From: Candidatus Dojkabacteria bacterium
Lineage (GTDB): Bacteria > Patescibacteriota > Dojkabacteria > J137
Length of the DNA: 64,000 bases
NCBI GenBank assembly: GCA_041750555.1
Contig: JBGSZB010000016.1
Location: 19,725-83,724 of the forward strand
Direction: 5' to 3'
Both the position numbers and the translations under genes were made by a program. The notes under the pieces are model-generated. The model searched no databases and had not been told where the DNA came from. It saw only the letters and a program-made list of their open reading frames with translations. Shown one piece after another: positions 862 through 54,714 of this stretch (its first letter is position 1; every line of letters begins with the position of its first letter).

Positions 862-1449
862 CTAATTTAAATATAAATACTTTCTTGTTCTTTCAATTAT
901 GCTTTCATAGGGGAAAGAGTCTATAACATTGAGACCTAGCTTCTTTGCCTGCTTTGAAATTCTTAAAGCATTCTGAAATTCAAATTCTAAAATCTTATCG
1001 AGCATTATTTTATCATTTGGAATATCTCGAGCTCTTTTTAAGTGATTCTTCTTGTATTCGTCAAACAAATCAATGTTTAAGAATACTTCATAGATATTAC
1101 TGTATTTCTTTTTCAGCTCAACAACAAAGAGAGGGTCAATATCTACACCTTCTATAACAATAGATTCATTGATTACTTGGTGATGAGCGATTATTATCTT
1201 TAAGCCTTTAGATACTTGACTGGCAATCTTTGCATGGGTTTTAACTAGATTTTCTACAGAAGAATTCAAGACAAATTCACTGTCTCGTAATCTATTAATT
1301 TTTCGTTTACTAGAGGAGATTGACTGCATTGCGATTCTTACATCATCAGCATAAATCCTAAGCAGCTTATACTCCTCTGAAAAATATTTTGCAAGTGTTG
1401 ACTTTCCTACTCCACTTCCTCCCCCAATCAGTATTATATAATTTTTCAT
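862..1449 (-). CDS. P-loop NTPase / small-molecule kinase (2-phosphoglycerate kinase-like)
   Basis: Walker A ILIGGGSGVGKSTLA near N-terminus; 195 aa. Confidence 0.5.
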   Translation of the reverse strand: MKNYIILIGGGSGVGKSTLAKYFSEEYKLLRIYADDVRIAMQSISSSKRKINRLRDSEFVLNSSVENLVKTHAKIASQVSKGLKIIIAHHQVINESIVIEGVDIDPLFVVELKKKYSNIYEVFLNIDLFDEYKKNHLKRARDIPNDKIMLDKILEFEFQNALRISKQAKKLGLNVIDSFPYESIIERTRKYLYLN

Positions 1450-2960: not shown

Positions 2961-5900
2961 ATGCCAAAAGGACACATAAAGATTGGTAAGTATAAAATCC
3001 ATCATCATCATTTGTTGATGTTTGTTATTATATCCTCCCTTGTGATAATTGGTGTATTAGCTTCTAAAGGCGTGTTCTTATTAAACGCAGCAACTTCTCC
3101 TTGGAATCAAACAGATTGGAGTGCTGGAGTTGGAGGATCTACTACAGATCAATTTGCTTCATCTACAAATATAGATTTTACAAATTCCGGTGAAATAGCT
3201 CTTGAAAAATCAAGTGCATTAGATTGGTACAATACAAGTTGGTTACATAGAAGAAAGATAGTTTTTAATAATACTGATGCAAATATTGGTGTAACCTCTC
3301 AAGCACTTGTAGATTTTTCATTTCCTGTTAAATTTACTGATGGAGTTAATATAGATTATGCTAAAACACAAAATGCAGGTCAAGATATTAGATTTACTGA
3401 TTGTGATGGAACTACAGAACTAAGTTACCAAATAGAAAAGTGGGATGAACTGGGAGAATCATTAGTTTGGGTAAAAGTTCCACAAATTGATCAAAATTCA
3501 AGTACAGATTGTATATACACTTATTATAATAATGTTGCAGCTACAGATGGACAGGGAGTAACAAGTAATGTTTGGAGTGATAATTACAAGCTTGTATATC
3601 ATATGAATGAAGCAGAAACTGTCCAAGCTACAGATTCATCCCCTAAGGGCAATAATATTGCAGCAAGTGGAACTCCAAATCAACCTAAATCTGCTACAGG
3701 TCAACTATCATTGGGTAGACTTACAGGTAGAGACGAAACAACAGGGAACAACACAAGAGGATTCTCAAACTTTAATACTTTAGACTTTGATCTAGAGGGA
3801 AAAACTAGCTTTACTGTTTCTCTTTGGTTAAACAGACAGAATGACTTTAGTACAGCTACAGGAGAGATCATCTACTTCGCTGGTAATACTGGCGGTGGAA
3901 CATCAGGACAAAGAGATATTTATCTGTCATTAGTTAATGGTACTATGGGTTCACCAGGTATAAGTACTAATTACTTTGTACCTAAAAATACTTGGGTGAA
4001 GTTTACTATTAGTTATGATAGTCCTAATAACCTAATGTATTTGTATGGAAATAATGAGCTCGTATCTACAACTACATATTCAACTGTAAATTTTTCACCC
4101 CTTGGGTTTAACGTAAACAGACTAGGGGTAAGATTTAATGGAACACAAAGATTTGGTGCTTACCTTGATGAAGTAAGAATAATCGCTGAGCACAGAACAA
4201 GAGCTGAATTAAATGCAGAGTACTTGGCAGAGACCAGTGGATTTACATCATATCAAGCTGAAGTTGGTTACTATAAAACAAGCGCAACACTTTTATCTAA
4301 TATATTTGATACAGAGCAAAAGAGTGATTGGGGTAATATAACATATACAGTTTCAGGTAGCGGATTAACCCTTAAAGCAAGAAGTGGTGCACAAGCTAAC
4401 CTAAGTGATGCTGATAATTTTAATACTTGTGATGCTATAACATCAGGTACAGATTTAACAGATAATGATTGTGTATATGATTCTGATAGATATATACAAT
4501 ATCAGGTTGATTTAACTTCAGATGGAGGAACAACGCCTGTATTAACTGATGTATCACTAGTATTTAGTCCAAGTGAATTAACTGATCCAGATGTGAATGC
4601 AACAAGTGTAGAAATATCAGGTGTAAGTGAAGGCGATTGGATAAACTATGAACCTACATTTACTTGGGATGATGCAACAGATAATTTGGGAGGTAGTGGA
4701 ATTTTAGGATATTGTTTAGCATTAGAAGAGGCAACAATTGAAAGTCCAACGAACTTAGATCCAGAAATAACATCTGGAGTTTTAGGTAGCGATAATTTAA
4801 GATGGGGATTCTGTCCATATATAGTTACAACTACTTCCCTTGATGTATCTGCAGTTACAGGATTAGATTTAACATCAAATAAACAATACTATTTATCTGT
4901 AAGAGCTATAGATAATTCAGGTAATATTTTTGATAGTGGAGATGTAAATGATTACCGAAATCTCTTTTCATTTAAACATGATAACGTACCACCAACTAAT
5001 CCTACATATGTTAGTTTACCTGGTAACTTTGTATCTTCTAAAGATGTAACACTAACTTGGCCTGTAGCCTCAGGTGGAGCAGATGATGATGCATCACTTG
5101 TTGCAGGTCTTCAATACAAGATTGGAGATAGTGGAACATGGATGGGAGACTTACACCTAGGTACAGAAGATCTAACTGACTTATTAAATAATGATGGAAG
5201 TTATACAACTGATGTTACAACTGATTATCCTGTTATTTTAGATGGATTAAATAACTTATATTTAAGAACACTTGATAATGCAGGAAATATTAGTAGCAGT
5301 AACTTAAGTGCTGTTTTAAAAATAAATACTAATGCACCATCAGAACCACAAAATCTAACTGTTTCAGAAACACCTCGTACTGAGAATGATTATTCATTTT
5401 CATGGGAACCACCTGCTACATTTACTGGAAGTGTTAATGGAATTACATATTGTTATACCATTAATGAGTTACCTTCCCTTAGTACTTGTAACTATACATC
5501 TCCTGGAAGTTTAAGTTTAGCTAGCGATGCATACGCTAATCAACCAGGAAACAATGTTTTTCGTATTGCCGCAAGAGATGAGGCTTTTAATATTAATTAC
5601 AGTGTATTTACTTCAGTTAACTTTGAATATACAGGAGATGCTCCAGGAATGCCACAAAACTTAAGCATTGCTGATGTATCCATAAAAGATCAAAGTGATT
5701 GGAGATTAGTTGTTTCTTGGATTGAACCTAGTAGTTTAGGAGCAGGAGTATCTAACTACAAAGTATATAGAAGTACAACTGAAGCTACATGTTCTAGTAA
5801 TCCTGGTGCATTTAGCGAAGTTGGAACAACTACAAGTCCATCAAAAATATTTTCAGATACGGGTTTAACCCAACAAACTTACTATTACTGTGTTAAAGCT

Positions 5901-25650: not shown

Positions 25651-26664
25651 ATGATAGCTTTAGATAATTTAGAAGGTAAAATCCCTGAAGGGTTTGGTGT
25701 AAAACCATTGTTTGAGGAATTACATCCAAATGGTCATATAGACGAAGAAACATATGAAAGAATTTTTGCAACAATAAATGTAAATCATCCAACTGATTGG
25801 ATGAGAGATAATCTTGATCAAAATGCAGAAGCTAATCCTGATAGTTTACCTAATGAATTTAAAAAGATATTTGAAAATTTCAGTCCAGAAGAAAGATTGG
25901 AATTAAGTGATTGTGCAGATGTTTTAAGTGAAATCGCGAATATGAATTTTGATGAACTTAATGTTAATCAAGTAAATGAATTAAGAAGAATATATAGAGA
26001 AGCTGAGATGAGAATTATGTATATGGTGAGAGTTAAGATTAAAGAGTATTTAGGAATAGATGTAGGTAATTTTGAAGCAATTAAAGAAAAATCATTATGT
26101 TTATACGCTCTTAGAGGAGCTAAGATAATGAAAAAAGGATTTGAACCATTAGCTAAGTATAACTATGAAGTTGAAATGAAAAGATTAGTTATGATGGATG
26201 GCCATTTTGAAGTAGGGGTGGGTTATGACTTTTTTAATATTCTAAGAAATTTATCACAAGAGGAAAAAGATAGTATTGAGAATGTATATTTACCAGATGA
26301 TTGTATATCAACTGGTATGAGTCAATTTGCAATGCTTAAGTTATTAAAAGCATTAGGATTAAATAATTTAAAAAAAATTATTATTCCAGCAAGTGTAGCA
26401 GTATCTGGTGGTATTAAACATTTAGTAAGTGAAGCAAAAAAGTTATTCCCAAATTGTGAAATAATTGTTGGTGCAGGAGAAGTTGCATACAGAGTTAATC
26501 AATTAATGTATCTATTAAAGCAGGATGGTAACTTTAAAGTAGGTGATATGGGGAAATTTAATGATATGGATGCATATGATTATATACCAGAGGGAGATCA
26601 ACCTATTAATGCTAATGAATTAATTAATCAAGCTAGACAAATTGGGGGAGTAGTTGAAGCATAA
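25651..26664 (+). CDS. protein with C-terminal phosphoribosyltransferase-like (PRPP-binding) domain and unknown N-terminal half
   Basis: VYLPDDCISTGMS resembles the PRTase PRPP loop (hhhhDDhhsTGxT). Confidence 0.4.
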   Translation: MIALDNLEGKIPEGFGVKPLFEELHPNGHIDEETYERIFATINVNHPTDWMRDNLDQNAEANPDSLPNEFKKIFENFSPEERLELSDCADVLSEIANMNFDELNVNQVNELRRIYREAEMRIMYMVRVKIKEYLGIDVGNFEAIKEKSLCLYALRGAKIMKKGFEPLAKYNYEVEMKRLVMMDGHFEVGVGYDFFNILRNLSQEEKDSIENVYLPDDCISTGMSQFAMLKLLKALGLNNLKKIIIPASVAVSGGIKHLVSEAKKLFPNCEIIVGAGEVAYRVNQLMYLLKQDGNFKVGDMGKFNDMDAYDYIPEGDQPINANELINQARQIGGVVEA

Positions 26665-28273: not shown

Positions 28274-29161
28274 TTATCTATTTGTAGTGTTACTTGTTGA
28301 ACTACTAGGTACGGGACATCCTTTATTTAAGTTTTTAACGAAGTAGTTATAGTCAGTTCTAGTTACATATCCATCACCATTTGAATCAGCAGTAACATCA
28401 CAAGTATTTGTTTTAGGAGCTGATACAGGAGTTCCTGCAACTACATCCTTACATTTATATGGGAAACCTCCTGCAAAAGAACTAGTAAAATCTCTAACTG
28501 TTATATTACCATCGTTATTTGTATCAATTGATGCACAAGGTTGTTCTATAAACTTATCACACTTCATTCCAAAGAACTCACTAAAGATTTTAAAATCATT
28601 GTAATCTAAAACGTAATCTTTATTTGCATCCATTGGACCACAGTGTTGTGTAGATAAATATGCTTCATCTGTTGGATCACACTGCTTACCCATGTTTTGA
28701 GCTAAGAAAGAAAAATCTCTTATTGTAATTCTATTATCTCTTGTTCCAGTAATCCCTTTAGAGTCCGTTGGCAATACATCCATTGTTCCGCAATTAATTG
28801 TTTTATTAGTAGAGCTAGAAGAAGTTGAGCCTTTATTTGAAATTACATTTGAGATTTCAGTTAAACTCTCATCATTTATCTCACTATCTTCATCTAATAG
28901 AGAGGTAGTTAAACAATTGTTAACATATGTATCTGTTAAGAATAGTTTTTCATCTTCATAATCATCACTAGAGGCTAAATCTAATTCAGGAAATGTTGTA
29001 CAGAAATCTTCAGTATTAACGTATTCTACAATTTTACTATCTATATCAGTTGTATTTACTGTTGCAGTATTAACCATCATGGTTGAAGCTAGTACTCCAA
29101 CTATAAAGAATCCAAGTGCAACTGAGAGAAGTAGTATAGTTAAAATATGGTGTCTTTTCAT
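28274..29161 (-). CDS. membrane-anchored secreted protein with four Cys-bracketed dockerin-like calcium-binding repeats
   Basis: N-terminal TM. Repeats: C..DxNxDGxITVRDF...C, e.g. CASIDTNNDGNITVRDF and CDVTADSNGDGYVTRTDYNYFVKNLNKGC. Confidence 0.55.
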   Translation of the reverse strand: MKRHHILTILLLSVALGFFIVGVLASTMMVNTATVNTTDIDSKIVEYVNTEDFCTTFPELDLASSDDYEDEKLFLTDTYVNNCLTTSLLDEDSEINDESLTEISNVISNKGSTSSSSTNKTINCGTMDVLPTDSKGITGTRDNRITIRDFSFLAQNMGKQCDPTDEAYLSTQHCGPMDANKDYVLDYNDFKIFSEFFGMKCDKFIEQPCASIDTNNDGNITVRDFTSSFAGGFPYKCKDVVAGTPVSAPKTNTCDVTADSNGDGYVTRTDYNYFVKNLNKGCPVPSSSTSNTTNR

Positions 29162-30378: not shown

Positions 30379-31536
30379 ATGAGATTATATAATACTTCTA
30401 TATTATTAAATACCCATATGAATATTAATAGCATTACCCCGACTTCTCAGGACTTTGAACCCAAAGTAGCAGATTACCGCAGATTTAATCTTGAACCTTA
30501 TCAAAAAAGAATAATTGATTTACGAAATAAATTAAATAGTGTTTATGATACTCTAAATAATCTTGTAAAAGACCCTGACTATGAAACTAAAGAAGTTTCG
30601 ATTGAAGACTATGAAGCTATTATTGAACATCTTAGATTACTTAATAATGAGTATGAAAAGTTAATAAAATACTTTACAAAAAGGAATGTTGCAAATTATT
30701 TGTATCCGCTTATTCTTCATGATTCTATTAAACCACTTTATACTCTTATACCTTATTTAGGTATGCTTACTTATGGTATAGATGATTACAAAGTTATTGT
30801 TAAAGAGAGCTTAGATTCCACTTTTACTAGTATAAGAACCTACTTAGATATCTTAGAGAAAATATCTACTTCTAATTTATTTGATACAAACCTCTCTTGC
30901 TTAGATCTAGCCAATGCACAAGGCTTAGATAGCACAGAAAGGGGAGGACTGTATCAAATCACATATAATGGGAAACTAAAAGAAATTGATTTAACAGACT
31001 TAAAAGGATTTTCGACACTTGAAATGTTTTTCCCAATCAATACAGCATTAATTAATGCTATACGAAGAGAAGATGTAACAAAGATAAAAATATCAGAAGT
31101 TCATGACGAAGCTACAGGAAATACGACATACTTAATTGCTGATAATTCACCAGTTAAATGGAATACCTCCCAAGATGAAACTCCTGAAGGATTTACAAAA
31201 CTGGCTATGGAAGCATATTTTTTAGGTATGGAATTCCCAGAATCTCCTGTTAAATCAGTATCGGGTGGTGCCCAAATGTCAATAGAACTTGCAGGTAAAA
31301 GAGATGCGAGATCAAATGATACTGATAAATCTTATCAATTAATAGAACAAAACCAAGTTGAGATAGAGTCTGCTAAAGCTGAGAATAAGTCACTTCATTT
31401 AGAACAATTTATTGGATATAAAGTTTTAGTATTAAAATTTAAGAAAGGTACACTAATAGTAGATTACCTATCTAAAAACCCTAAGAAGAATCAGGATACT
31501 GAAGCAGATGAAGAAGCTCTTATTGCTGCCGCCTAA
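30379..31536 (+). CDS. hypothetical protein
   Basis: 385 aa ORF, soluble, no motif recognised. Confidence 0.5.
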   Translation: MRLYNTSILLNTHMNINSITPTSQDFEPKVADYRRFNLEPYQKRIIDLRNKLNSVYDTLNNLVKDPDYETKEVSIEDYEAIIEHLRLLNNEYEKLIKYFTKRNVANYLYPLILHDSIKPLYTLIPYLGMLTYGIDDYKVIVKESLDSTFTSIRTYLDILEKISTSNLFDTNLSCLDLANAQGLDSTERGGLYQITYNGKLKEIDLTDLKGFSTLEMFFPINTALINAIRREDVTKIKISEVHDEATGNTTYLIADNSPVKWNTSQDETPEGFTKLAMEAYFLGMEFPESPVKSVSGGAQMSIELAGKRDARSNDTDKSYQLIEQNQVEIESAKAENKSLHLEQFIGYKVLVLKFKKGTLIVDYLSKNPKKNQDTEADEEALIAAA

Positions 31537-32083: not shown

Positions 32084-32842
32084 TTAATCTCCCAAAGTTT
32101 TCTTTGGGAGATTTCTAATATTTCTAGTAGCGTGTTTAACTATCCATTTAGTATTTACATTATCACTTTTACTCCATTCATTAATTACTTTAATAGCATA
32201 ATCATAGTTATCTTTAAGCATATCATTTAAGTTATTAGCTACTGATTTTTTAACAAAGAGTATATTATCTTCTTTTAAATTATTTATTACACTTAATACT
32301 AATTCTGGATTTTTTATACTCTCATCTAATTTAAAGCTCCATGGTAATCTAGATCTAACTCCTTCACTAGCTAATCTTCTAATATGAAAGTTAGAGTCCA
32401 ATGACCATTTTTTCATTAAGTTATATGTTTTCTTTGGATATTTTTTTAAAAATGGTCTAATTGCATATTCTCCAGTATTTCTTTTAGTTAATTCATATAT
32501 TGCATTTATACTTTCATCATAGTGATCTAATCCGTAAAGAATAATAAAAGTACTAATAGGGAGTAACCAATAATATTCTTTAAACATTCCAGTTTCTTTT
32601 AAATTTTCATTACCCATTATACTTATTAATATCTTAATAGCTTTAGAATATTCTTTAGGTAAATGTTTATGTAATGCTTTAGCTATTAATTCAACTCTAC
32701 CACTGTATTCTAGGTCTAAGTATTCCCTAGCTATGTAATTAATAAATGAAGTAGTATTAAATTCTGGATATTCCTTTATTATCTTTAAAGATAAATCTAT
32801 AGCTAATTGTGTATCAAACCAATCTTTTACTTTTTTAGTCAT
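32084..32842 (-). CDS. DNA alkylation repair enzyme family (AlkC/AlkD-like HEAT-repeat glycosylase)
   Basis: HEAT-like repeats; WSLDSNFHIRRLASEGVR and KKSVANNLND motifs typical of PF08713. Confidence 0.55.
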   Translation of the reverse strand: MTKKVKDWFDTQLAIDLSLKIIKEYPEFNTTSFINYIAREYLDLEYSGRVELIAKALHKHLPKEYSKAIKILISIMGNENLKETGMFKEYYWLLPISTFIILYGLDHYDESINAIYELTKRNTGEYAIRPFLKKYPKKTYNLMKKWSLDSNFHIRRLASEGVRSRLPWSFKLDESIKNPELVLSVINNLKEDNILFVKKSVANNLNDMLKDNYDYAIKVINEWSKSDNVNTKWIVKHATRNIRNLPKKTLGD

Positions 32843-32843
32843 A

Positions 32844-33254
32844 CTATTTTATACTAATTTCTTTATTTAATACTAAACCAGCTAATCTTGCATATTCTTC
32901 AAAATCAGGTATTAACTTATCTTCTTCTATCATCTTGTCATAAATTCTTTGCGAAGCATATCCATAAAAACCAAATCTTTCGAATCTGAAATTTGATATT
33001 TTAACTTCCTTCCCATACCTCCATAATAGATAAAGTAATCTGTGATTGCCTTCAGCAGCAAAGAATCTCTTTTTACCATTAATATCTGTTACTTCTGTTA
33101 TTAAGATATCTGTACTTGATACATCTAATGTATTATTACTTGTTATAGGTCCTTCATCCCATAAATGATAAGGTTGTCCATTAAAAACTTTTTGTAAACT
33201 AAAACTTCTAGGTAAATCATGAGGAATTATATCCATTACTCTTATAGGTTCCAT
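32844..33254 (-). CDS. ParB/sulfiredoxin-like nuclease-domain protein
   Basis: FFAAEGNHRLLYL matches the ParB/Srx xxGxHRxxA motif; 136 aa. Confidence 0.4.
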   Translation of the reverse strand: MEPIRVMDIIPHDLPRSFSLQKVFNGQPYHLWDEGPITSNNTLDVSSTDILITEVTDINGKKRFFAAEGNHRLLYLLWRYGKEVKISNFRFERFGFYGYASQRIYDKMIEEDKLIPDFEEYARLAGLVLNKEISIK

Positions 33255-33313
33255 ATTTCTTAAACTAAATAGTTATATAATCTCATAAATATTGTATAAT
33301 TCAAATACCTTAA

Positions 33314-33403
33314 GGAGGGGTACCCAAGTGGCTCAAGGGGAGGGTTTGCTAAACCCTTAGTACGGAGTAATCCGTAGCGCAGGTTCGAATCCTGTTCCCT
33401 CCG
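33314..33403 (+). tRNA. tRNA-Ser (anticodon GCT)
   Basis: Acceptor GGAGGGG/TCCCTCC; anticodon stem GGGTT/AACCC with loop TTGCTAA; long variable arm (TTAGTACGGAGTAATCCGTAGC); T-arm GCAGGTTCGAATCCTGT; no encoded CCA. Confidence 0.85.
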
Positions 33404-33433
33404 TATTTTTCTAAAGACAGTTTAATTACCTAA

Positions 33434-34183
33434 ATGAGAAGACCCAGAGAAGATTTGATAGCTATTATAAATGATGCCAACTCATTATTGTACGATTCAT
33501 CAATTTATACAGTACTAGGGACAAATAACCCCTACGATGAGGTTTACGAAAATTTAACTGAAAAGGGATACTATCTTACTGCTTTCTCCGGCATGACGAT
33601 ACTAGGATTTTATTCAAGAATATTTTATATGATAAAACTATTTAAGCCTAAAGTATTATCTCCCAAACAAGTCAATGCACTAAATGAAATAAAGGAAATA
33701 GCTAAAAATAATAAAATTAAAGGACTTTGTTATATAAAAAATCCCGAATCTAATCTAACTAGTGATTTAGATCATTTTAGGAGTTTCATGAAGTACCTAT
33801 TGAATCAAGGATTGGATCTTGGATTAAACTCAAATAATTATGAATCTGCTTGGAAACAGTTTAGAAATACGATCGCTCATCTTGCTTTTCCAGGACTTCC
33901 AATCGGTGGGAAACATATACCTAAAGATGATAAGGATGCAATATTACGACTTGGACTACCTATATATGATGCCGAAAAAGCTTTTGATATACTTAGAAAA
34001 GGATCTAAACCAACAGATACTTTTACTTATACTGACGGTACGCTGCACCTAAACAGTTATGTTCTTATTTCATATATTCCTATAATTAGAAATCACTTAA
34101 TATCTATTGTAAATGATGTAAGTGAAGAGAAATGCCAATTTGCAATAGATGACTTAAAGGAAATCTGGAACAGACAAAAATAA
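33434..34183 (+). CDS. HEPN-like / Abi-like protein (RNxxAH motif)
   Basis: FRNTIAHLAF fits the Rx4-6H HEPN motif in the RNxxAH variant found in Abi_2/Swt1-type HEPN proteins; first gene after tRNA-Ser. Confidence 0.4.
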   Translation: MRRPREDLIAIINDANSLLYDSSIYTVLGTNNPYDEVYENLTEKGYYLTAFSGMTILGFYSRIFYMIKLFKPKVLSPKQVNALNEIKEIAKNNKIKGLCYIKNPESNLTSDLDHFRSFMKYLLNQGLDLGLNSNNYESAWKQFRNTIAHLAFPGLPIGGKHIPKDDKDAILRLGLPIYDAEKAFDILRKGSKPTDTFTYTDGTLHLNSYVLISYIPIIRNHLISIVNDVSEEKCQFAIDDLKEIWNRQK

Positions 34184-34277
34184 GAAATACACAAACAAAA
34201 TGCAATTTAGAAGATATTCTTAATAATTTGACCGGGACAATTTTTGTTTTATAATCACATATATTAATACATATAAC

Positions 34278-35219
34278 ATGACAAAACCTCTTTCAAAATT
34301 GGTTAAAGTAGAACTTAGGGAAGTATGGGGACATGAAGCTATAGATTTTACTAATTGGTTAGCAATGCAAGAGAATTTAGATATTTTAGGCAAAGAGATA
34401 GGAGTTGAGATTAAGCTTATAAAGACAGAGGCAAGTGTGGGTAAATTTAACGTTGATATATTAGCTGAAGAGGAGTCCTCTGGGAGAAAAATAATAATTG
34501 AAAATCAGCTCGAAGATACTAATCACGATCATTTAGGCAAAATTATTACTTATGCTTCAGGATATGACTCAGAAATTATTATATGGATTGTTAAAAATTT
34601 TAGAGACGAGCATAAGAAAGCAATTGAGTGGCTAAACGAGCATACAGATGAATCTATTAACTTCTTTTTAATAAAAGTTGAACTATGGCAAATAGATAAT
34701 TCATATCCAGCTCCAAAGTTCGAAATTATTTCAAATCCCAATGAGTGGGCTAAAGCAATTAAGACCATATCTCTTTCAGGTGAGTTAACGGAGACAAAAT
34801 TACAGCAACTAGGATTTTGGGATAAATTTAAAAATTATGTTAGGGAAAGAGATCAAAATATTAGGTTACAAACACCTCGACCTCAACATTGGTATGATGT
34901 AAGTATGGGAAGTTCTTATGGTCATGTTGCACTTACCTTAAATACTCGGGAGAACTTAATAGGATGTGAGGTCTATATCGATAGGAATAAAGATCTTTAT
35001 AAGTTCTTAATTGAAAAGAAAGAATTAATTGAAAGCGAAATTGGTGAATCTTTGAAGTGGGTCGATGCATCTGTAGCTTCAAGAATTAAAATAAAGAAAA
35101 AGATTTCAAACTTGTTCAATGATAATAGTAACGAAGAAAAATTTAAATGGATGTATGAAAAGACCATTCTTTTCCAAAAAGTTTTTATCAAACACTTTAA
35201 GGAATTTAAAAATGAATAA
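34278..35219 (+). CDS. DUF4268 family protein with N-terminal NucS/PD-(D/E)xK-like nuclease domain
   Basis: VELREVWGHEAIDFTNWL...VGKFNVDILAEEE...IIENQLEDTNHDHLGKIITYASG...EHKKAIEWLNEHT...FFLIKVELWQI is the stereotyped DUF4268 signature. Confidence 0.65.
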   Translation: MTKPLSKLVKVELREVWGHEAIDFTNWLAMQENLDILGKEIGVEIKLIKTEASVGKFNVDILAEEESSGRKIIIENQLEDTNHDHLGKIITYASGYDSEIIIWIVKNFRDEHKKAIEWLNEHTDESINFFLIKVELWQIDNSYPAPKFEIISNPNEWAKAIKTISLSGELTETKLQQLGFWDKFKNYVRERDQNIRLQTPRPQHWYDVSMGSSYGHVALTLNTRENLIGCEVYIDRNKDLYKFLIEKKELIESEIGESLKWVDASVASRIKIKKKISNLFNDNSNEEKFKWMYEKTILFQKVFIKHFKEFKNE

Positions 35220-35220
35220 T

Positions 35221-35760
35221 ATGACAATAGAAATAATCCAAGGTAACAAAGTAACTAATGAAGATTTAGAATTAATTAATAAATATAGAAAGATTAGATT
35301 ATCTAGAGATAGAGTATGGGATCATAAAATAAATAACGAATTCCATGATAGAACATTCTTTCTAGTTAGAGATAATAATCAATTAGTAGCATTTGGTACA
35401 TTAAGAGATATTAAGATATATATAAATGATATAGAAGTAACTATTAAAGGTATACAAGCAATAATATCAATAATACAAGGTATGGGTTATGGTAAATACT
35501 TAATGCAAAACATGATTAAATATGCAATTAATAATAATTTAATATTAATAGGATTTTGTGAAAGAAAGAATAAAGAATTTTATATTAAAAGTGGTTTAGA
35601 AGTATTTGAAGATAAAAACTTAAACTTTATATACATTAATGAAAAACTTGAAGAATATAGTGAAGAGGGAGATGTAATATATTATTCAAAGGAAAATAAC
35701 ATTGTAAGAGAAGCTATAGTTAGTAATATTAAGATTAAACACTTTATTCCCCATTGGTAA
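35221..35760 (+). CDS. GNAT-family N-acetyltransferase
   Basis: IQGMGYGKYLMQ resembles GNAT motif A (Q/RxxGxG/A). The track ORF (35119) overlaps the upstream gene; ATG 35212 or 35221 abuts its stop at 35217-35219. Confidence 0.55.
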   Translation: MTIEIIQGNKVTNEDLELINKYRKIRLSRDRVWDHKINNEFHDRTFFLVRDNNQLVAFGTLRDIKIYINDIEVTIKGIQAIISIIQGMGYGKYLMQNMIKYAINNNLILIGFCERKNKEFYIKSGLEVFEDKNLNFIYINEKLEEYSEEGDVIYYSKENNIVREAIVSNIKIKHFIPHW

Positions 35761-35831
35761 AACTGAATTTGTATTACAATACAATGCAATTATTTAAGAA
35801 TCATTGTATAAATAAATATTTAAATTTACAA

Positions 35832-36611
35832 ATGACCACACTTAGTTTATATATAGATGAGACTGGTAATGATAATCCTTTAAACAAGCAATCTGAATAC
35901 TATATTCTTTGTGGAATAGTTGTGTTAAAAGATAAACAAGAGGATTTAAAAATCTTATCTGATCAAATTAAATTCAAATATTGGAATCGAACTAATATTG
36001 TTTTCCACTCTATAGATATTCAGAGGAATCAAAAAGATTTTATTCTTTTTAATCAAAACCCAACTTTTAAAGATGAATTTTTAAAGGATTTATTCAAACT
36101 TTTGAATAGTGGTCCCTTCAAAATACTCTCCTGTGTAGTTAATAAAGATAAAGCAAGAGAAAAAGGATGGAATAGAGTAAAAGTTTTACAAGAAACATCT
36201 AAGTCACTTTTTAAAAACTATCTTGTACTTTTAACCTCAATTAAAAATACAAATGGAAGAATTATTGTAGAAGCTAGTAGTTCGGAGAAGGATATCTTTT
36301 ACCTAAAAGCCTTAAGTTATTTTTTAACAAATGGTATTTATAGTTTAAAAATAGACTCTTCTATGGTTAGATCTAGATTAACTTCAATTTCATTTGTTTC
36401 TAAGAAAAATAATGACATTGAAGAACAGATAGCTGATTTAATAGCATATGGAATAAAATGTTACCTTGAATATGAAAAAGGGGAAATATTTCATAAAAAC
36501 TCTTATGAATACAAAATCTTACAAGTCGTTAAGTCTAAACTATATTCAAAACCTTCAAACACAAGAAAGAATTTATTAAATGAAGTGAATCCTTTAGAAC
36601 TTATTATATAG
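35832..36611 (+). CDS. DUF3800 domain protein
   Basis: N-terminal LSLYIDETGN, the DUF3800 signature (YIDESG). The track start (TTG 35754) overlaps the GNAT stop; in-frame ATG at 35832. Confidence 0.6.
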   Translation: MTTLSLYIDETGNDNPLNKQSEYYILCGIVVLKDKQEDLKILSDQIKFKYWNRTNIVFHSIDIQRNQKDFILFNQNPTFKDEFLKDLFKLLNSGPFKILSCVVNKDKAREKGWNRVKVLQETSKSLFKNYLVLLTSIKNTNGRIIVEASSSEKDIFYLKALSYFLTNGIYSLKIDSSMVRSRLTSISFVSKKNNDIEEQIADLIAYGIKCYLEYEKGEIFHKNSYEYKILQVVKSKLYSKPSNTRKNLLNEVNPLELII

Positions 36612-36723
36612 ATATAAAAAAACGAGATTGAGCCTAAACGGTCTCGCCCTCGCCTTTTATAAGAATATTATATCACCACAAACTTTTCATTTCAAACAAT
36701 AAAAAATATAATATAATTCACTA

Positions 36724-37461
36724 ATGAACATCCTAGAAAAAATAAAAGATAAATTACTTAAAGATCAGAAATATACAATAGTATTCTTTGGAGATTCAAC
36801 AATTTCTACAGAGTGGGTACATCCTAATACAAGAGAGATAATAGAATATGTATTAAAAGACACGTTAGAAAAGACAATGCAAGATTGGAGACTCCCTAAT
36901 TGGAATATTAGATTTATAAATGCAGCACTAAATGGTGGATCAACTAAAGATTTCTTAAAATATATGGTTAGTGAAATAGATGATTATAAACCAGATATGG
37001 TTATATTAATTGGAGGAGATAATGATTTAGAAGATAATGAAATAATTGATGATATTCATGCTAATAACTTAAATAAAATACTTACATTTCTAAAAAGTAG
37101 AGTAGAGGATGTTGTATATGCAACAGCTCTATACCATGCATTAATACCTAATAGAAATACTAGATATCTAAAGTTTTTAGAAAAGATTAAGAATTTAGAA
37201 ATTCTAAAAAGTATTCACTTTATTAATTTATATGATTTTTTTAACTACGAAGAATCTAATAGATTCTTTACATTTAAATTATCTAAGGAAGAAGCATATT
37301 TATTTAATTTGAGAGAGGGAGATATTGATCCATCACATATGAATCAATTAGGACAAGCATATGTGGCCTCTAGAATATTAAAAGAAATATTTAATATTGA
37401 ATTTGATCCAGAGAAATATATTAAAACTAATAATTTAGGGTATAAATATCCAGAATATTAA
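36724..37461 (+). CDS. SGNH/GDSL-family hydrolase
   Basis: IVFFGDSTIS (block I GDS) and LIGGDNDL (block III). Confidence 0.7.
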   Translation: MNILEKIKDKLLKDQKYTIVFFGDSTISTEWVHPNTREIIEYVLKDTLEKTMQDWRLPNWNIRFINAALNGGSTKDFLKYMVSEIDDYKPDMVILIGGDNDLEDNEIIDDIHANNLNKILTFLKSRVEDVVYATALYHALIPNRNTRYLKFLEKIKNLEILKSIHFINLYDFFNYEESNRFFTFKLSKEEAYLFNLREGDIDPSHMNQLGQAYVASRILKEIFNIEFDPEKYIKTNNLGYKYPEY

Positions 37462-37551
37462 TAATCCCCATTGTTTAACTTCTCTAGAAGCTTAATTCCA
37501 ATTATTACGGATAAGTACTAAAATGTAGATATATTTTTAAAACATATATCT

Positions 37552-37953
37552 ATGAAAAAAGGGTTTTTTGCAAATATAGAGGAATTAACAATAAATAACT
37601 CTAACTTTAGACAAGTACTATACACTGGTAAATACTCCCAATTAGTATTAATGACTTTAAAGCCAGGAGAAGAAATTGGAATGGAAGTACATAATGGAAC
37701 AGATCAATTCTTTAGATTTGAAAGTGGAGAAGGTAAGGTAATTGTAAATGATAGTGAGTATATAGTTACAGATGGAGATTGTGTAGTAATACCAAGTGAT
37801 TGTAGCCATAACGTTATAAATACATCAAGTACAGTAGACTTAAAAATGTATACAATATATTCTCCATCACACCATAAGGATAAAGTAATACATCCAACAA
37901 AAACTGATGCATTAAATGACGATGAAGAGTTTGATAATGTTACCACTGAGTAA
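37552..37953 (+). CDS. cupin-domain protein
   Basis: GEEIGMEVHNGTDQFFRFESGEGKV...GDCVVIPSDCSHNVIN two-motif cupin signature. Confidence 0.7.
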   Translation: MKKGFFANIEELTINNSNFRQVLYTGKYSQLVLMTLKPGEEIGMEVHNGTDQFFRFESGEGKVIVNDSEYIVTDGDCVVIPSDCSHNVINTSSTVDLKMYTIYSPSHHKDKVIHPTKTDALNDDEEFDNVTTE

Positions 37954-37999
37954 TAATTATAGTTGTAGTGAGAATAATATTTTGCAATAATAGGCATGT

Positions 38000-40900
38000 A
38001 TGAAGATCCTAATAATTGAAAAGGACTTAATAGCGAGGCTTGTTATTAAGAATATAATATACAAAAGCTTAAGTGTTGATAGGAATCAATTAGACATATA
38101 TACAACCCCTAATCCACTACAAGGAATTGGAACATGTTTTGTAATTAATCCAGATATAATAATTTTTGATGAAAAAGAATATATAACTGATGATAAAAGT
38201 ATTAGTGAATATATCTCTTCAAATAAAAATATATTAATTAATTCACCAATAATAATTAAAAACTTCTCTAGATTTACTGAAGATCGTAACTATGTAGAAC
38301 ACTATTCACAATTCTTAGAGGCTAAATTAAAAGAATTTAACTTAAGTAATGGTTTAAAAATAGATACTATTGAAAAAATATTACTTAAGTTACTGTATCC
38401 ATCTAAAAAAGAAAAAAGATATAAGAATAATATTTTAAATAAATCGTATATAGTTTTAAATAACCTTTATTTAGATTTATTAACTGGTGTATATAGATTA
38501 CTTTGGGATAGGAAAGAAATTGAGAGAGATGATTTAACAGTAACTTATGAAAAGAAAACATTTAATCAAAGAATTTATCCTAAGCTATTTATAGCGTCCT
38601 CTATTACTCTATCTATACTTTTAAATGTATCGCTATCTCTTCTTCCAATACTTGGATTAGGATACTTATCACAAAGAGATGCTACAGCTCAGATTACTGA
38701 TAACTGTATAGCTATAGATAAAGACTTTAATCAAGAAATAGGTTTAATAGATTTAGCAAGTATTGCAACTAAATACAATGATGAATGTGTTAATACAAGT
38801 TATCATTGGGGATGTGGTTCTATGGATAGCAATAGTGATAGTAGTGTAGATGTAATAGATTTAGCATATTTAGTTCAAAGATATAATCAAAGTTGTTTTA
38901 AAGGTGGTGAATGGTTTGTTTCAACCACTGGAAGTCCTACAGGAGATGGAAGTATAGATGATCCATGGGATATTGCTACAGGGTTAAATAGTTTTAATAC
39001 AATTCAACCTGGAGATACATTATGGTTAAGAGGTGGAACTTACGGAACTGGAGCGGGAACTATTTATCAAACTAAATTAATAGGTACAGAAGAAAGTCCA
39101 ATCGTTATTAAAAGTTATCCAAATGAATGGGCTGTAATAGATGGAGGAATACAACAAGTAGCGCTATCTGGAGCTGCACATATGTGGTTTTGGGGATTTG
39201 AAGTAACTAATTCAAGTATAGTAAGGCCAATAGATAATGTAAGTGCATTTAGATCTGCAGGATTTGATCTTCATGGTCCTGGTACAAAAGTAATAAATCT
39301 ATATATAAATAATACTGGACATCCCTCTATTGGTTTCTGGGATAGAATTGAAGATGGGGGAGAGGTATATGGGACAGTATCTTGGGGGGCAGGGGTTAGA
39401 GATGATACTCCAGAGTACGGAGGAGCTTGGAGAGGAGCTTCAATTTATGGACAAAACACTATTGGAAATAGAAATATTGAAAACAATATATTCTTTTCTA
39501 ATTCAACTACAGGTTTAAGTACTCACGGTGTTGATGGACATGTTAATAACTTTACATATAGATATAATTCAGTATTTAACAACAACCAAGCTGATTTAAT
39601 AGCCTACAGTACAAATCACGGAGCATCAGGATTAGTAATTGATAATAATAGTTTTTATTCTGAAAGAGGAATGGCTGTAGGAAGTATGCTAATTGGAACT
39701 TTTGGAAATAATTACGATGCAACAATTACAAATAATATAGTTTTTAACCCATACAAAGGAATATATTTTAGAAAATATGAAACAATAAATTTAACTAATA
39801 ACTTAATTATCTCTGATACCGACTTAGTAATTCAAGATAGTTCAGTTACAACATATAACTCAAGTAACAACAAATTTATATCTAGAGGTGGATCAATATT
39901 AAAACTTGATGGTGTAAGTTCAAGAACATTTAGTGCTCTAACTACACATTTATCAGATTCAACCTCAACTTACTCTAGATATATAGATGAAAGCAATAAA
40001 GTACTATTAAAACCTAATAAGTATGAATATGGGAAAGCTCATTTAACTGTATATAACTTTGAAAATAAGATTACTGAGAGCATTAATCCTTCAACTTTTT
40101 TATCGTATGGTGATTACTACATTGTAAGAGATGTACTAGATTACGATAATCCAATAATAAAAGGTAGATATTTAGGTAGTAATATAACTATTCCTCTACA
40201 TCTATATGTTTATCAACCAATTACAGGAACAGTATTTAATGCTAATCATAAGCACTTTGCTCCTATGTTTAATAACTATTCAATAGAGAGAGTAAACTCT
40301 AGTAGTGGGAATAAAGTAAATGCCCCAGTATTAGTGGGAGATCTTGAATACTCAACATCTGTTTATTCTGTAGAATTAACTTCAACTACACCTAATGCCC
40401 TAATATATTACACAACAGATGGAAGTGAACCAACAACATCCAGCACTCTATACTCTGGGGCGTTTAATATCTCAAGCACTGTAGAGATTAAAGCAATAGC
40501 AGTATTAGACGGTTATGAAGATAGTACAAAGGTAAAATACAATATATATAAAATTGATTTAGAGGATGGATTAAAAGGATATTACAAACTAGATGAAGAG
40601 AGTGGTACAACAGTACTAAACTCATCTAACGATCCATCTAAATTCCCTGTAGGTACAACAGTTGGAACAGGTATTGAAAGAATAAGTGGAATTGATGGAG
40701 GTGCATATAGACTAGATGGAGCGGGGAGTTACTTTAACGTGTTATCAGTTTCAGGATTAACAGAAGCTTATTCAATATCAGGGTGGGCAAAATTAAGTGG
40801 TAATTCAGGAACCTTACTAAACATAGGATCAAGTGCATGGAGTACTGTAAACTTTAGATTAACCCTAACAGCATCTACTAATATGGTAAACAATATGACT

Positions 40901-41209
40901 CATTTTCCTGGAGATTTCTCTGGAACTGGAGTAGAAAGTAATAATTGTAACAGTGTAACTGAATGGAACTTTTATACTGTAACTTTTGATGGAACAAGTC
41001 AAAGAATATATTGTAATGGAATATTTAAAAGTATAACAACAAGAGAGGATGGCCCCCTAGTTGCGGGAACCCGAACAACTATGAATGTTGGATTTAATGG
41101 ATTTGACCAATCGTTTACTGGAGATATTGATGAGATAAGGATATATAATAGAACTCTAAACGAAAGAGAGGTTTATTCATTATTTAATCAATTTAAAGAC
41201 CAAATTTAA
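38000..41209 (+). CDS. large surface protein: N-terminal receiver-like domain, TM helix, dockerin-like Cys-bracketed repeats, parallel beta-helix (pectate-lyase fold), chitobiase/hexosaminidase-C-like domain, C-terminal LamG_3 lectin domain
   Basis: MKILIIEKDL...DIIIFDEK receiver-like; TM ~aa 195-215; CIAIDKDFNQEIGLIDLASIATKYNDEC and CGSMDSNSDSSVDVIDLAYLVQRYNQSC; DGSIDDPWDIATGLNSFNTIQPGDTLWLRGGTYG beta-helix start; ALIYYTTDGSEPTTSS; C-terminal DIDEIRIYNRTLNEREV LamG_3 end motif. Confidence 0.75.
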   Translation: MKILIIEKDLIARLVIKNIIYKSLSVDRNQLDIYTTPNPLQGIGTCFVINPDIIIFDEKEYITDDKSISEYISSNKNILINSPIIIKNFSRFTEDRNYVEHYSQFLEAKLKEFNLSNGLKIDTIEKILLKLLYPSKKEKRYKNNILNKSYIVLNNLYLDLLTGVYRLLWDRKEIERDDLTVTYEKKTFNQRIYPKLFIASSITLSILLNVSLSLLPILGLGYLSQRDATAQITDNCIAIDKDFNQEIGLIDLASIATKYNDECVNTSYHWGCGSMDSNSDSSVDVIDLAYLVQRYNQSCFKGGEWFVSTTGSPTGDGSIDDPWDIATGLNSFNTIQPGDTLWLRGGTYGTGAGTIYQTKLIGTEESPIVIKSYPNEWAVIDGGIQQVALSGAAHMWFWGFEVTNSSIVRPIDNVSAFRSAGFDLHGPGTKVINLYINNTGHPSIGFWDRIEDGGEVYGTVSWGAGVRDDTPEYGGAWRGASIYGQNTIGNRNIENNIFFSNSTTGLSTHGVDGHVNNFTYRYNSVFNNNQADLIAYSTNHGASGLVIDNNSFYSERGMAVGSMLIGTFGNNYDATITNNIVFNPYKGIYFRKYETINLTNNLIISDTDLVIQDSSVTTYNSSNNKFISRGGSILKLDGVSSRTFSALTTHLSDSTSTYSRYIDESNKVLLKPNKYEYGKAHLTVYNFENKITESINPSTFLSYGDYYIVRDVLDYDNPIIKGRYLGSNITIPLHLYVYQPITGTVFNANHKHFAPMFNNYSIERVNSSSGNKVNAPVLVGDLEYSTSVYSVELTSTTPNALIYYTTDGSEPTTSSTLYSGAFNISSTVEIKAIAVLDGYEDSTKVKYNIYKIDLEDGLKGYYKLDEESGTTVLNSSNDPSKFPVGTTVGTGIERISGIDGGAYRLDGAGSYFNVLSVSGLTEAYSISGWAKLSGNSGTLLNIGSSAWSTVNFRLTLTASTNMVNNMTHFPGDFSGTGVESNNCNSVTEWNFYTVTFDGTSQRIYCNGIFKSITTREDGPLVAGTRTTMNVGFNGFDQSFTGDIDEIRIYNRTLNEREVYSLFNQFKDQI

Positions 41210-41277
41210 ATTCTAGTGAGAATCTTTAACCCTGCAATGATATAATCTATGCTGTTAATTTATTAATTAAGATTAAG

Positions 41278-41829
41278 ATGTATCCATATATAATTTTAAA
41301 GATAGAAAACTATATACCACATTTATACTTAAGAACTTCAGAAACTTTAGAAACTCAAATTGAAGACGAAGATATTAGTTTATTAGATACCGTATTAGAA
41401 TTAGGAGAAAAATTAAACTTGAGTGATTCTAACTTAGATTCTAAATCTCAATATAACTATCTCATAAATTTAGCTAGAGAACATGATGAGACATATGCAA
41501 CAAGTAATAGTGATATTGATAATACAACTTTTTTTAGATTGAAAGAGTATTTAGATAGATTTTTAGAAGAGAATAAAGTAGAGCCCCTATACCTTGATGT
41601 AGAAGTTAGTGATGAAATTAGAGATCAATTAAATAGAGAACAAGGTGCAGATTTATTAGCTAGTATATTAGACTATATCTATACAATATTAATAGCTAAA
41701 AGCGTTATAGCTGCATCCGAAATGGGAATAGGTGTTATACATTTAAATGATGAAACTAAAAACAGTAGACTTCAAGAAAAAATGGCAATGGAGTTAGAAA
41801 AAATTGATGTTGAGTTAATAATAGATTAA
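41278..41829 (+). CDS. hypothetical acidic protein
   Basis: 183 aa, D/E-rich, no motif recognised. Confidence 0.4.
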   Translation: MYPYIILKIENYIPHLYLRTSETLETQIEDEDISLLDTVLELGEKLNLSDSNLDSKSQYNYLINLAREHDETYATSNSDIDNTTFFRLKEYLDRFLEENKVEPLYLDVEVSDEIRDQLNREQGADLLASILDYIYTILIAKSVIAASEMGIGVIHLNDETKNSRLQEKMAMELEKIDVELIID

Positions 41830-42254
41830 TCAGGTTTACTACTATTTAACCATTCAAAAACTTCAGTTAAATTATCTCTATGAGTATTATCAAATACTTT
41901 TAAATCATATTTATGCCTTAAATCAGTTATACCTAATCCATAAGTAACTATTGGTATAAATTTACTAACGATACTTAAGTCTTCTGGCATAACAACAGCA
42001 TAAGCTCCCCAATTAACGTCAAATGGGAATTGTACAAAATTTAAAATAGCAGTTAATGGTGGTGTTTTATCTACAACATATATTATTCTACAGTTCCTAT
42101 CTTTATCTAACCTTTTTAATACACCCTCATCAAACTCTTTTCCTTTCTCTAAAAAAAGTTTAGTATCAGTTGTATTGATTCTTAGGATATGAGCTCCCTT
42201 AAAATCATAGATTATCTCCATCTCTTTTGAATTATCAAAATCAAGTTTAATCAT
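41826..42254 (-). CDS. hypothetical protein
   Basis: 142 aa; ends 1 nt from the FNR-like gene (stop-start overlap at 42254). Confidence 0.4.
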   Translation of the reverse strand: MIKLDFDNSKEMEIIYDFKGAHILRINTTDTKLFLEKGKEFDEGVLKRLDKDRNCRIIYVVDKTPPLTAILNFVQFPFDVNWGAYAVVMPEDLSIVSKFIPIVTYGLGITDLRHKYDLKVFDNTHRDNLTEVFEWLNSSKPD

Positions 42255-42961
42255 TAACCATATTTTTCCATAAATATATTACTTACCCCAAGGGATTTTA
42301 AAACAACAGTAGTGTCATTTATCATTTCATTACTACCACATAGATAAAACTCTGTATTATTAATATCAATATTTAAATTAGAGTATTTATTATCTAAAAT
42401 ATCACTAACTACAGTGTTTACCCTACCTTTAAAAGAGTATTCGTTTATGGGGTCTTCTCTAGTTACACATTGAACATATTTAAATTTAGAAGAATCTATA
42501 TCTTTAAAATATATATATGCAATATCTAATTCACTTGTTCTTGTACCAAATAACAGATAAATACTTCCATTAAAACTATTATCATTAATTAACGAATAAA
42601 TCATTGGAATAAATGGAGCTATACCACTTCCTGTTGCTATAAATACTTTATTCTCAACAACATTTTTAATATTAAATATTCCATAAGGCCCTAAAATATT
42701 AATTTCATCATTAATTTTAGTATCTATAAAATACTTAGAAGCTAATCCCATTGGTTTAACATCTATTAAAAGTTTTAATAAATTATCCTTAACTTCTACA
42801 ATTGAATAGGCTCTTGTATATGTTGGATTAAATTTAATTACTACAAATTGTCCAGCCTTATATTCAAAATCAATTGGAACTCTATAGTAAAGTTCATAAG
42901 TTGTTTCATTTATCTGTATCTTTTTTTCTAAAAGGGATTTGAAATTTAATATTTTTAACAT
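42254..42961 (-). CDS. ferredoxin-NADP-reductase-like FAD/NAD(P)-binding oxidoreductase
   Basis: RAYSIVEV (RxYS FAD motif) and FIATGSGIAPFIPMI (GTGIAP NAD(P) motif); no Fe-S domain. Confidence 0.6.
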   Translation of the reverse strand: MLKILNFKSLLEKKIQINETTYELYYRVPIDFEYKAGQFVVIKFNPTYTRAYSIVEVKDNLLKLLIDVKPMGLASKYFIDTKINDEINILGPYGIFNIKNVVENKVFIATGSGIAPFIPMIYSLINDNSFNGSIYLLFGTRTSELDIAYIYFKDIDSSKFKYVQCVTREDPINEYSFKGRVNTVVSDILDNKYSNLNIDINNTEFYLCGSNEMINDTTVVLKSLGVSNIFMEKYG

Positions 42962-54123: not shown

Positions 54124-54714
54124 ATGTTCGATAAAGATAATGAAGGTTACAGAAAAACAAAATCTAGTCAGATCGGGTATCTAGAAGATGGAACTGTGGT
54201 TGACGATACTTTAGAAGCACTTGAGAGAATGAATAATATAAACTCCAGATTAGACTTACTAATAGACAGTATTAAAGAGAAAGATCCTGAGATGTTCTCT
54301 GAGATGAAAATTAGCCAAGAATATATGGCTATGTTAATTTTGTTAGAAATTAGGATTTTAGCAGAAACGTATCCTAGAGTTAAAGCAACTCTTGATGAAA
54401 TCCAAGGAACAGGTAGTGCCCAAACTATGAATGAAACGGCAATAGAGGCAATAAAAAGAAGATTGGAATCTAGAGCAACTGTAGAGGTTAGAAAAACAAG
54501 AGAACAACTGGTTATTGATGCTATTATGGAATATACCTATATACAAGAAGCAGTAAAGAGAAAAGGCATAAAATACTTACAAGATTATGAAACATTAAAT
54601 TCGCTTTGCCGTAATATTCAAGACGATATTATTCCTGATGTTAATTTCCAGGAAATACAATTGGCGATGGATAGCATTGTATCAAAATTAGAAGGCCAAA
54701 CTATTGAAGGTTAA
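54124..54714 (+). CDS. hypothetical protein
   Basis: 196 aa ORF, predicted helical, no motif. Confidence 0.4.
   Translation: MFDKDNEGYRKTKSSQIGYLEDGTVVDDTLEALERMNNINSRLDLLIDSIKEKDPEMFSEMKISQEYMAMLILLEIRILAETYPRVKATLDEIQGTGSAQTMNETAIEAIKRRLESRATVEVRKTREQLVIDAIMEYTYIQEAVKRKGIKYLQDYETLNSLCRNIQDDIIPDVNFQEIQLAMDSIVSKLEGQTIEG

Follow-up and report, generated by a model that had tools for sequence, protein, structure and literature searches.

The 64,000-nucleotide stretch of the Candidatus Dojkabacteria contig JBGSZB010000016.1 analysed here (hereafter the window) contains a tRNA-Ser(GCT) gene followed by six open reading frames (ORFs) on the same strand, ORF1 to ORF6 (Table 1). An initial annotation had taken this block (33404-37953) for one accessory island of defence-type genes at the 3' end of the tRNA. 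The six plus-strand ORFs are present as described there, and the first ATG of ORF1 (33434) is the 31st base past the tRNA end, with 30 nt in between. Two gene starts are corrected: ORF3 begins at 35212 (182 aa) and ORF4 at 35832 (259 aa), and the exact products of both are on record. The stop of ORF2 and the start of ORF3 overlap by 8 nt. Rather than one system, the six genes form a mixture. To our mind the chances are slightly better than even that about 1.8 kb (33404-35219) represent a recombinase-less remnant of a tRNA-Ser-targeting island with two single-gene defence modules, ORF1 and ORF2, followed by four unrelated host-like genes.

Table 1. Features of the tRNA-Ser(GCT) locus, in coordinates of the window.
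Feature	Coordinates	Strand	Basis or remark
tRNA-Ser(GCT)	33314..33403	+	ARAGORN; Rfam tRNA 52.1 bits; intact, candidate integration target
ORF1, 249 aa, all-alpha, W-x3-R-N-x3-H-x3-P motif, candidate HEPN-like RNase	33434..34183	+	foreign-looking cargo
Sigma-70-like promoter TTGACC-16-TATAAT, 11/12 matches, just 5' of ORF2	34228..34255	+	consensus match only
ORF2, 313 aa, N-terminal nuclease-like domain and C-terminal DUF4268	34278..35219	+	PADLOC PDC-S11, Pfam
ORF3, 182 aa, GNAT acetyltransferase	35212..35760	+	Pfam Acetyltransf_1 1.3e-05
ORF4, 259 aa, DUF3800	35832..36611	+	Pfam DUF3800 1.8e-11
G+C-rich hairpin with an A run on one side and a U run on the other, terminator-like in either direction	36613..36661		folding versus shuffles
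Sigma-70-like promoter, 10/12 matches, 5' of ORF5	36684..36712	+	consensus match only
ORF5, 245 aa, SGNH/GDSL hydrolase	36724..37461	+	Pfam Lipase_GDSL 6.5e-10, Lipase_GDSL_2 3.1e-08
ORF6, 133 aa, single-domain cupin	37552..37953	+	Pfam Cupin_2 1.5e-17

Residues 1-309 of ORF2 cover positions 1-314 of the 318 in the profile of the PADLOC candidate PDC-S11 (E 4.2e-117), and the protein is aligned end-to-end with three PDC-S11 models (E 4e-117, 3e-110 and 8e-82). Residues 177-305 constitute the DUF4268 domain (PF14088, E 1.2e-26, 93.9 bits against a cutoff of 27), and the protein also matches phrog_27742. Its N-terminal half contains the positions D60, E64-66, E75-N-Q77, H83-D-H85 and K88, all invariant in 26 homologs. 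Searches with this N-terminal domain and with the family profile of ORF2 find no relative of it in Pfam or among solved structures, so that the designation as a PD-(D/E)XK-like nuclease is a putative one. By analogy with studied DUF4268 proteins, ORF2 is most likely a type IV-like, modification-dependent restriction nuclease; we infer both its enzymatic activity and its role in the defence of this organism.

More than 7900 homologs of ORF2 are found. The best of them are 77-79% identical and carry annotations to other CPR (Candidate Phyla Radiation) phyla, namely WWE3, Peregrinibacteria, Pacebacteria and Magasanikbacteria, whereas the housekeeping proteins of the window reach 62-74% identity with the nearest genomes. 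At the DNA level ORF2 resembles other loci only within its coding sequence, and the conserved unit is therefore the gene itself. Transfer of the PDC-S11/DUF4268 nuclease between CPR phyla is clear. Plasmids and proviruses carry homologs as well, as do 56 IMG/VR contigs; single-protein scans of IMG/VR with ORF1, ORF2, ORF4 and ORF5 return no relatives.

The neighbours of ORF2 homologs were surveyed in 83 loci from metagenomes and assemblies. Restriction-modification (R-M) genes are enriched downstream (N6_N4_Mtase three times, N6_Mtase/Eco57I three times, an EcoRI methylase and HsdS), and type I HsdR occurs three to four times upstream. In loci L006-L009 the homologs are lone insertions between core genes. 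In WWE3 (L012-L014, 6001-12656) the DUF4268 gene stands at the head of a compact, dense defence island and is followed by Ymh (HEPN), an EcoRI-like methylase, GmrSD, an SLFN/AlbA_2 ATPase and a HepT/MNT toxin-antitoxin pair. A large serine recombinase is located about 0.1-4 kb from the ORF2 homolog in 19 loci, 17 of them from IMG/VR and two (L024 and L055) from metagenomes. The order of features in L024 is EF-G, tRNA-Ser(CGA), serine recombinase, two small ORFs, DUF4268, a type IIG R-M enzyme, two HsdS and a second serine recombinase, and in L149, from a high-GC organism, it is tRNA-Ser(GGA), serine recombinase, two ORFs and DUF4268. The DUF4268 gene starts 75 nt after a tRNA-Ser(CGA) in L022 and 320 nt after one in L010. 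Among same-strand tRNAs located up to 3.3 kb upstream of DUF4268, the window excluded, four of eight are tRNA-Ser (binomial P about 0.005 at a Ser share of 10%, a post hoc value from loci that are not independent). The tRNAs of these contexts differ strongly from each other and hence do not reflect a single inherited arrangement.

Several of these loci display further features. The two large serine recombinases of L024 (3578-12423) are paralogs, 57% identical and 7.1 kb apart, with repeated flanking segments and the tRNA-Ser(CGA) adjoining; the locus looks like a tandem accretion of integrative elements with DUF4268, the type IIG R-M enzyme and the two HsdS genes. In L010 (5594-5809), a partial duplicate of the 3' half of tRNA-Ser(CGA) lies 33 nt past this gene (5714-5756 and 5792-5809). 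It is interrupted by a 35-nt G+C-rich insert, and 32 nt at 5770-5801, comprising most of the insert and the bases just beyond it, are repeated 470 nt upstream (5300-5331). This segment looks like an integration or excision scar just before the DUF4268 gene. The WWE3 island presents a second case of DUF4268 beside a HEPN-type gene, here of a different HEPN family.

ORF1 has no match in Pfam, NCBIfam or PHROGs, and in PADLOC only a weak one to Cas13a (E 0.006); the PADLOC Abi models match neither ORF1 nor its relatives. A word-indexed search of 5.8 billion proteins returns ORF1 itself only, and an exhaustive HMMER search of 1.84 billion representatives yields four relatives (28-41% identity). 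In the family of five sequences, for which the alignment gives 22-41% identity to ORF1, W140, R144, N145, H149 and P153 are invariant. The pattern Rx4-6H is the signature of HEPN RNases, and the R-N-x3-H of all five members conforms to it. Pfam, NCBIfam, PHROGs and PDB contain no match by sequence for any of the five. In hhalign comparisons the ORF1 motif lands on the R-N-x3-H of HepT with negligible probability, the values for HepT and Ymh both being below 1%. The WWE3 Ymh HEPN protein encoded 3' of DUF4268 was considered as a relative of ORF1, but no similarity was found.

A model of ORF1 from the single sequence, with a pLDDT (predicted local distance difference test) of 39, is of no use. 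In a model of moderate confidence the protein is helical and looks HEPN-like; the structures listed for ORF1 are 1ylm, 8xdj, 2hsb and 1wwp, and Csm6 (6tug) at lower Z. On motif and modelled fold, ORF1 is a probable but unproven HEPN-like RNase, most likely of the abortive-infection or toxin type. One of its relatives (P0126) converges on a large serine recombinase gene, another (P0127) lies directly upstream of hsdM-hsdS, and a third (P0129) is found 130 nt past a tRNA-Trp, followed downstream by a 359-aa unannotated ORF and a nucleotidyltransferase gene; the fourth (P0128) is located on a 1.2 kb contig. These contexts fit mobile or defence cargo. Somewhat doubtfully, ORF1 may found an undescribed and very rare HEPN-like family (five members among 1.84 billion, about 250 aa) of new abortive-infection RNases, which would travel as single-gene cargo on serine-recombinase/tRNA islands near restriction systems in CPR and other uncultured bacteria.

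Composition was assessed against 60 genes of the window by z scores of the G+C content at third codon positions (GC3) and of synonymous-codon likelihood. ORF1 (GC3 z +1.7, codon z -2.2) and ORF2 (GC3 z +2.8, the second highest in the window, codon z -1.3) deviate, ORF4 is mildly atypical in its codon usage, and ORF3 (codon z +1.7, the most host-like of the block), ORF5 (+0.9) and ORF6 (+0.4) are host-like. The promoter-like site 5' of ORF2 is the best such site in the region. The hairpin 3' of ORF4, overlooked by a consensus terminator scan, has z scores of -4.2 on the plus and -3.8 on the minus strand, and none of 200 shuffles is as stable; it is probably a bidirectional intrinsic terminator. 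By these promoter-like and terminator-like signals the block would split into at least three transcription units. Furthermore, tblastn finds no relative of ORF1, ORF3, ORF4, ORF5 or ORF6 in about 135 loci with an ORF2 homolog, and the loci of ORF1 homologs contain no relatives of the other block genes (about 140 loci of ORF1 and DUF4268 together).

That all six genes form one accessory island or a multi-gene defence or stress module, as the initial annotation proposed, is highly unlikely, because composition, transcription signals and co-occurrence all disagree with a single unit. In its favour, the genes are co-directional, tightly packed and begin 30 nt from the tRNA, DUF4268 is a defence candidate, DUF3800 has been reported with retrons and CRISPR loci (PMC7736814, PMC13594972), ORF4 is mildly atypical in codon usage, and synteny with distant relatives stops ahead of the region. 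Against this stand the host-like composition of ORF3, ORF5 and ORF6, the signals that interrupt the block, four of six proteins without a PADLOC match, zero co-occurrence in the related loci, and a co-directional run that passes 37953 with neither boundary signal nor repeat nor integrase. Of the domains named in the initial annotation, Pfam supports DUF4268, GNAT, DUF3800, GDSL/SGNH and Cupin_2, and no HEPN hidden Markov model (HMM) matches ORF1. PADLOC, suggested there as a check, recovers ORF2 over its full length as PDC-S11, gives only the weak Cas13a match for ORF1, and has none for the GNAT, DUF3800, SGNH and cupin proteins. What is retained of the proposed defence-island cargo at the tRNA-Ser 3' end is the pair ORF1 and ORF2, probably acquired horizontally and of defence type; for ORF3 to ORF6 membership is not supported.

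The four downstream proteins exceed their Pfam cutoffs (Acetyltransf_1 25.8 against 20.7 bits, DUF3800, PF12686, 45.4 against 21, Lipase_GDSL 39.9 against 23.6 and Cupin_2 63.5 against 27.2). ORF3, ORF5 and ORF6 are small enzymes of a generic type whose codon usage is host-like, and ORF3 to ORF6, with no demonstrated link to defence or to one another, look like ordinary host enzymes. ORF6 matches phrog_13536, and three IMG/VR contigs (L018-L020, 46-260 kb) encode homologs of 60% identity, with no other block gene beside the cupin. The translation of ORF4 contains an N-terminal D-E motif (LYIDETG) and a Q-x-x-D motif (QIAD), as judged by comparison with PMC7736814. For DUF3800, an RNase H-like fold and ties to retron type VII, to Cas12a3/type III loci and to eleven RNA motifs have been reported (PMC7736814, PMC13594972, PMC5737381). 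Near ORF4 the domain scan finds no reverse transcriptase, cas gene, CRISPR array or TPR fusion, and Rfam none of the motifs DUF3800-I to -XI, whether at the gathering threshold or with the E limit raised to 10. Phage and plasmid records contain almost no relatives of ORF4, and no relative in Pfam beyond DUF3800 or among solved structures was found.

The least probable explanation considered joins ORF2 and ORF3 into a two-gene nuclease/GNAT unit, with the acetyltransferase as regulator, antitoxin or modifier of a tRNA or protein target. GNAT toxins and regulators do occur in toxin-antitoxin and defence systems, the 8-nt overlap suggests translational coupling, and a promoter-like site precedes ORF2 with no strong one before ORF3. 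Short overlaps are, however, frequent in compact genomes, the definition of PDC-S11 is that of a single-gene candidate, ORF3 is unlike ORF2 in codon usage, and a GNAT of the ORF3 kind follows DUF4268 neither among the 51 neighbours on its downstream side nor in the viral loci. ORF3 is probably outside the islet of ORF1 and ORF2.

No ORF between about 28 and 46 kb contains a recombinase domain, and three large serine recombinases of related loci, used as tblastn queries, detect no pseudogene remnant in the window, in agreement with the absence of an integrase or recombinase remarked on in the initial annotation. An attachment (att)-like repeat of the tRNA-Ser 3' end, proposed there for a search near 37.9-38.0 kb, is absent: neither the terminal 21-mer nor the 16-mer has a second copy in the 64 kb at up to three mismatches, and direct repeats in 33250-42500 do not exceed the chance level. 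Since the window holds neither remnant nor repeat, we infer the decay of an island from the loci of other genomes. Large serine integrases of the phiC31/Bxb1 type use short att sites with a 2-bp crossover and create no long direct repeats; a missing att repeat is thus compatible with a serine-integrase route and, if such an integrase was involved, not decisive against an island.

The right edge of the block at 37953 is arbitrary, and its surroundings are not the uniform core metabolism first described, since many flanking ORFs are hypothetical, as is typical in CPR genomes. The co-directional run goes on through 38000-41209 and 41278-41829, the latter a 183-aa ORF. The former encodes, 46 nt after the cupin gene, a probable cell-surface protein of 1069 aa that contains CHB_HEX_C/Fn3-associated and LamG domains. 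With the run passing beyond the cupin into this gene, the block has no natural right boundary.

Among species representatives in GTDB, the TGT (tRNA-guanine transglycosylase) of the window is matched in four genomes, all of them CPR (62-64% identity), one being a Candidatus Dojkabacteria metagenome-assembled genome. Synteny with these four extends from 22.5 kb in the window to an Hsp20 gene that ends at 32051; from 32.1 kb onward nothing is found in them, and the matching flank has no tRNA-Ser. To the left of the tRNA (32084-33254, minus strand), two genes, one for a DNA alkylation repair protein of the AlkD kind and one a 136-aa ORF without family, are outside the synteny of the relatives as well, so that the variable region may start ahead of the tRNA, at about 32.1 kb. 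Within the otherwise syntenic block, the genes at 25651-26664, 28274-29161 and 30379-31536, one of which carries dockerin/EF-hand-like repeats, have no counterpart in the four Dojkabacteria-like genomes and look like insertions between core genes that are specific to the lineage. In a collection of 15 billion proteins each of the six block proteins is a singleton at the 90% identity level, the exact 90-nt tRNA-Ser sequence is absent from the metagenome contigs, and an exact-protein look-up for close relatives returns only an identical 1.4 kb Logan contig.

It is unlikely that no island ever existed here and that six vertically inherited genes of a poorly sampled CPR clade lie next to the tRNA by chance. 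The missing att repeat, integrase and recombinase remnant would agree with this, as would the overall GC, which is inside the window range, the richness of CPR genomes in unannotated small genes, and the singleton status of all six proteins, which marks the lineage as under-sampled. It is opposed by the identity of ORF2 to proteins of other phyla, above that of housekeeping proteins to the nearest genomes, by ORF1 and ORF2 as GC3 and codon outliers, and by homologs of both genes in recombinase or R-M contexts, repeatedly just 3' of tRNA genes.

Several observations weigh against the preferred reading of a decayed island with ORF1 and ORF2 as its cargo. The GC3 and codon deviation of the two genes is only moderate (z about 2 on the 60-gene baseline), the window shows neither recombinase remnant nor att repeat, and no close relative of the genome that would bear on insertion and boundaries was found in the searches made. 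The HEPN label of ORF1 is given without HMM or significant profile support, Foldseek finds no significant match for it in PDB or BFVD, its model is moderately confident only and is poor in the stretch that follows the motif. For the N-terminal domain of ORF2 neither Pfam nor PDB has a match. The overlap of ORF2 and ORF3 could mean that the GNAT is coupled functionally to the nuclease, and ORF4 might be cargo too, given that the literature ties DUF3800 to mobile elements and defence (PMC13594972).

Under this preferred reading, an integrative element with a large serine recombinase, targeting tRNA-Ser genes, would have delivered ORF1 and ORF2; L024 and L149 may represent the still-intact kind of such an element. 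The recombinase and the remainder of the element would have been lost later. The C-terminal DUF4268 of ORF2 would recognise modified phage DNA and its N-terminal acidic-motif domain (D60, E75-x-Q77, K88) would cut the DNA recognised, while ORF1 would act as an abortive-infection or toxin RNase. ORF3 to ORF6 would be transcribed separately and would not belong to the delivered cargo.

Defence systems of CPR/Patescibacteria are poorly charted, and their tiny genomes are thought to hold few. The repeated position of PDC-S11/DUF4268 just downstream of tRNA-Ser, at times with a serine recombinase, provides a testable vehicle for the exchange of defence genes in CPR, and there is a possibility that CPR host tRNA-Ser-specific serine-recombinase islands which shuttle PDC-S11 nucleases between phyla. 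Some novelty lies in the tiny, putatively HEPN-like family of ORF1 and in the recurrent link of tRNA-Ser, serine recombinase and PDC-S11. Defence-flavoured Pfam names in a row beside a tRNA do not make a system, and only a third of the present block behaves as imported defence cargo. Elsewhere in the window, the genes at 862-1449 (minus strand, GC3 z +3.5, codon z -3.5) and 54124-54714 (plus strand, GC3 z +2.5, codon z -1.8) are the most or near-most deviant and are candidates for further horizontally acquired genes.

Compared with HEPN toxins (HepT/MNT, HI0074 and the Abi type), ORF1 is twice the size of the minimal members, matches no HEPN HMM, and has no MNT antitoxin adjoining it in the window. 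ORF4 shares the D-E and Q-x-x-D motifs with the DUF3800 proteins known from retron type VII and from Cas12a3/type III loci, but it has none of their partners nearby (reverse transcriptase, CRISPR array, TPR fusion, DUF3800 RNA motif) and no PADLOC match. GmrSD type IV enzymes recurrently carry DUF4268 as an accessory domain (PMC4619093), and the WWE3 loci have a GmrSD gene two genes downstream of the ORF2 homolog; ORF2 itself is without DUF262 or DUF1524 (GmrS/GmrD), and its N-terminal domain is an unassigned nuclease-like one of another kind. The DUF4268 nucleases MdgA and MdgB give E. coli protection against T4, though none against the unmodified T4-GT7, and MdgA degrades modified DNA in vitro, its E77A variant being inactive (PMC12366544). 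Like them, ORF2 combines a putative nuclease domain with DUF4268 and belongs to a family that is widespread across phyla. The essential E77 of MdgA and the invariant E75 of ORF2 are similar in position number. PDC-S11 is a computational single-gene candidate family; ORF2 is likewise stand-alone, and its family is lodged among R-M and defence genes. From tRNA islands with large serine recombinases the window differs in having no recombinase, second boundary or detectable att site, and it resembles them in the position at the 3' end of a tRNA-Ser and in the cargo gene that it shares with L024 and L149.

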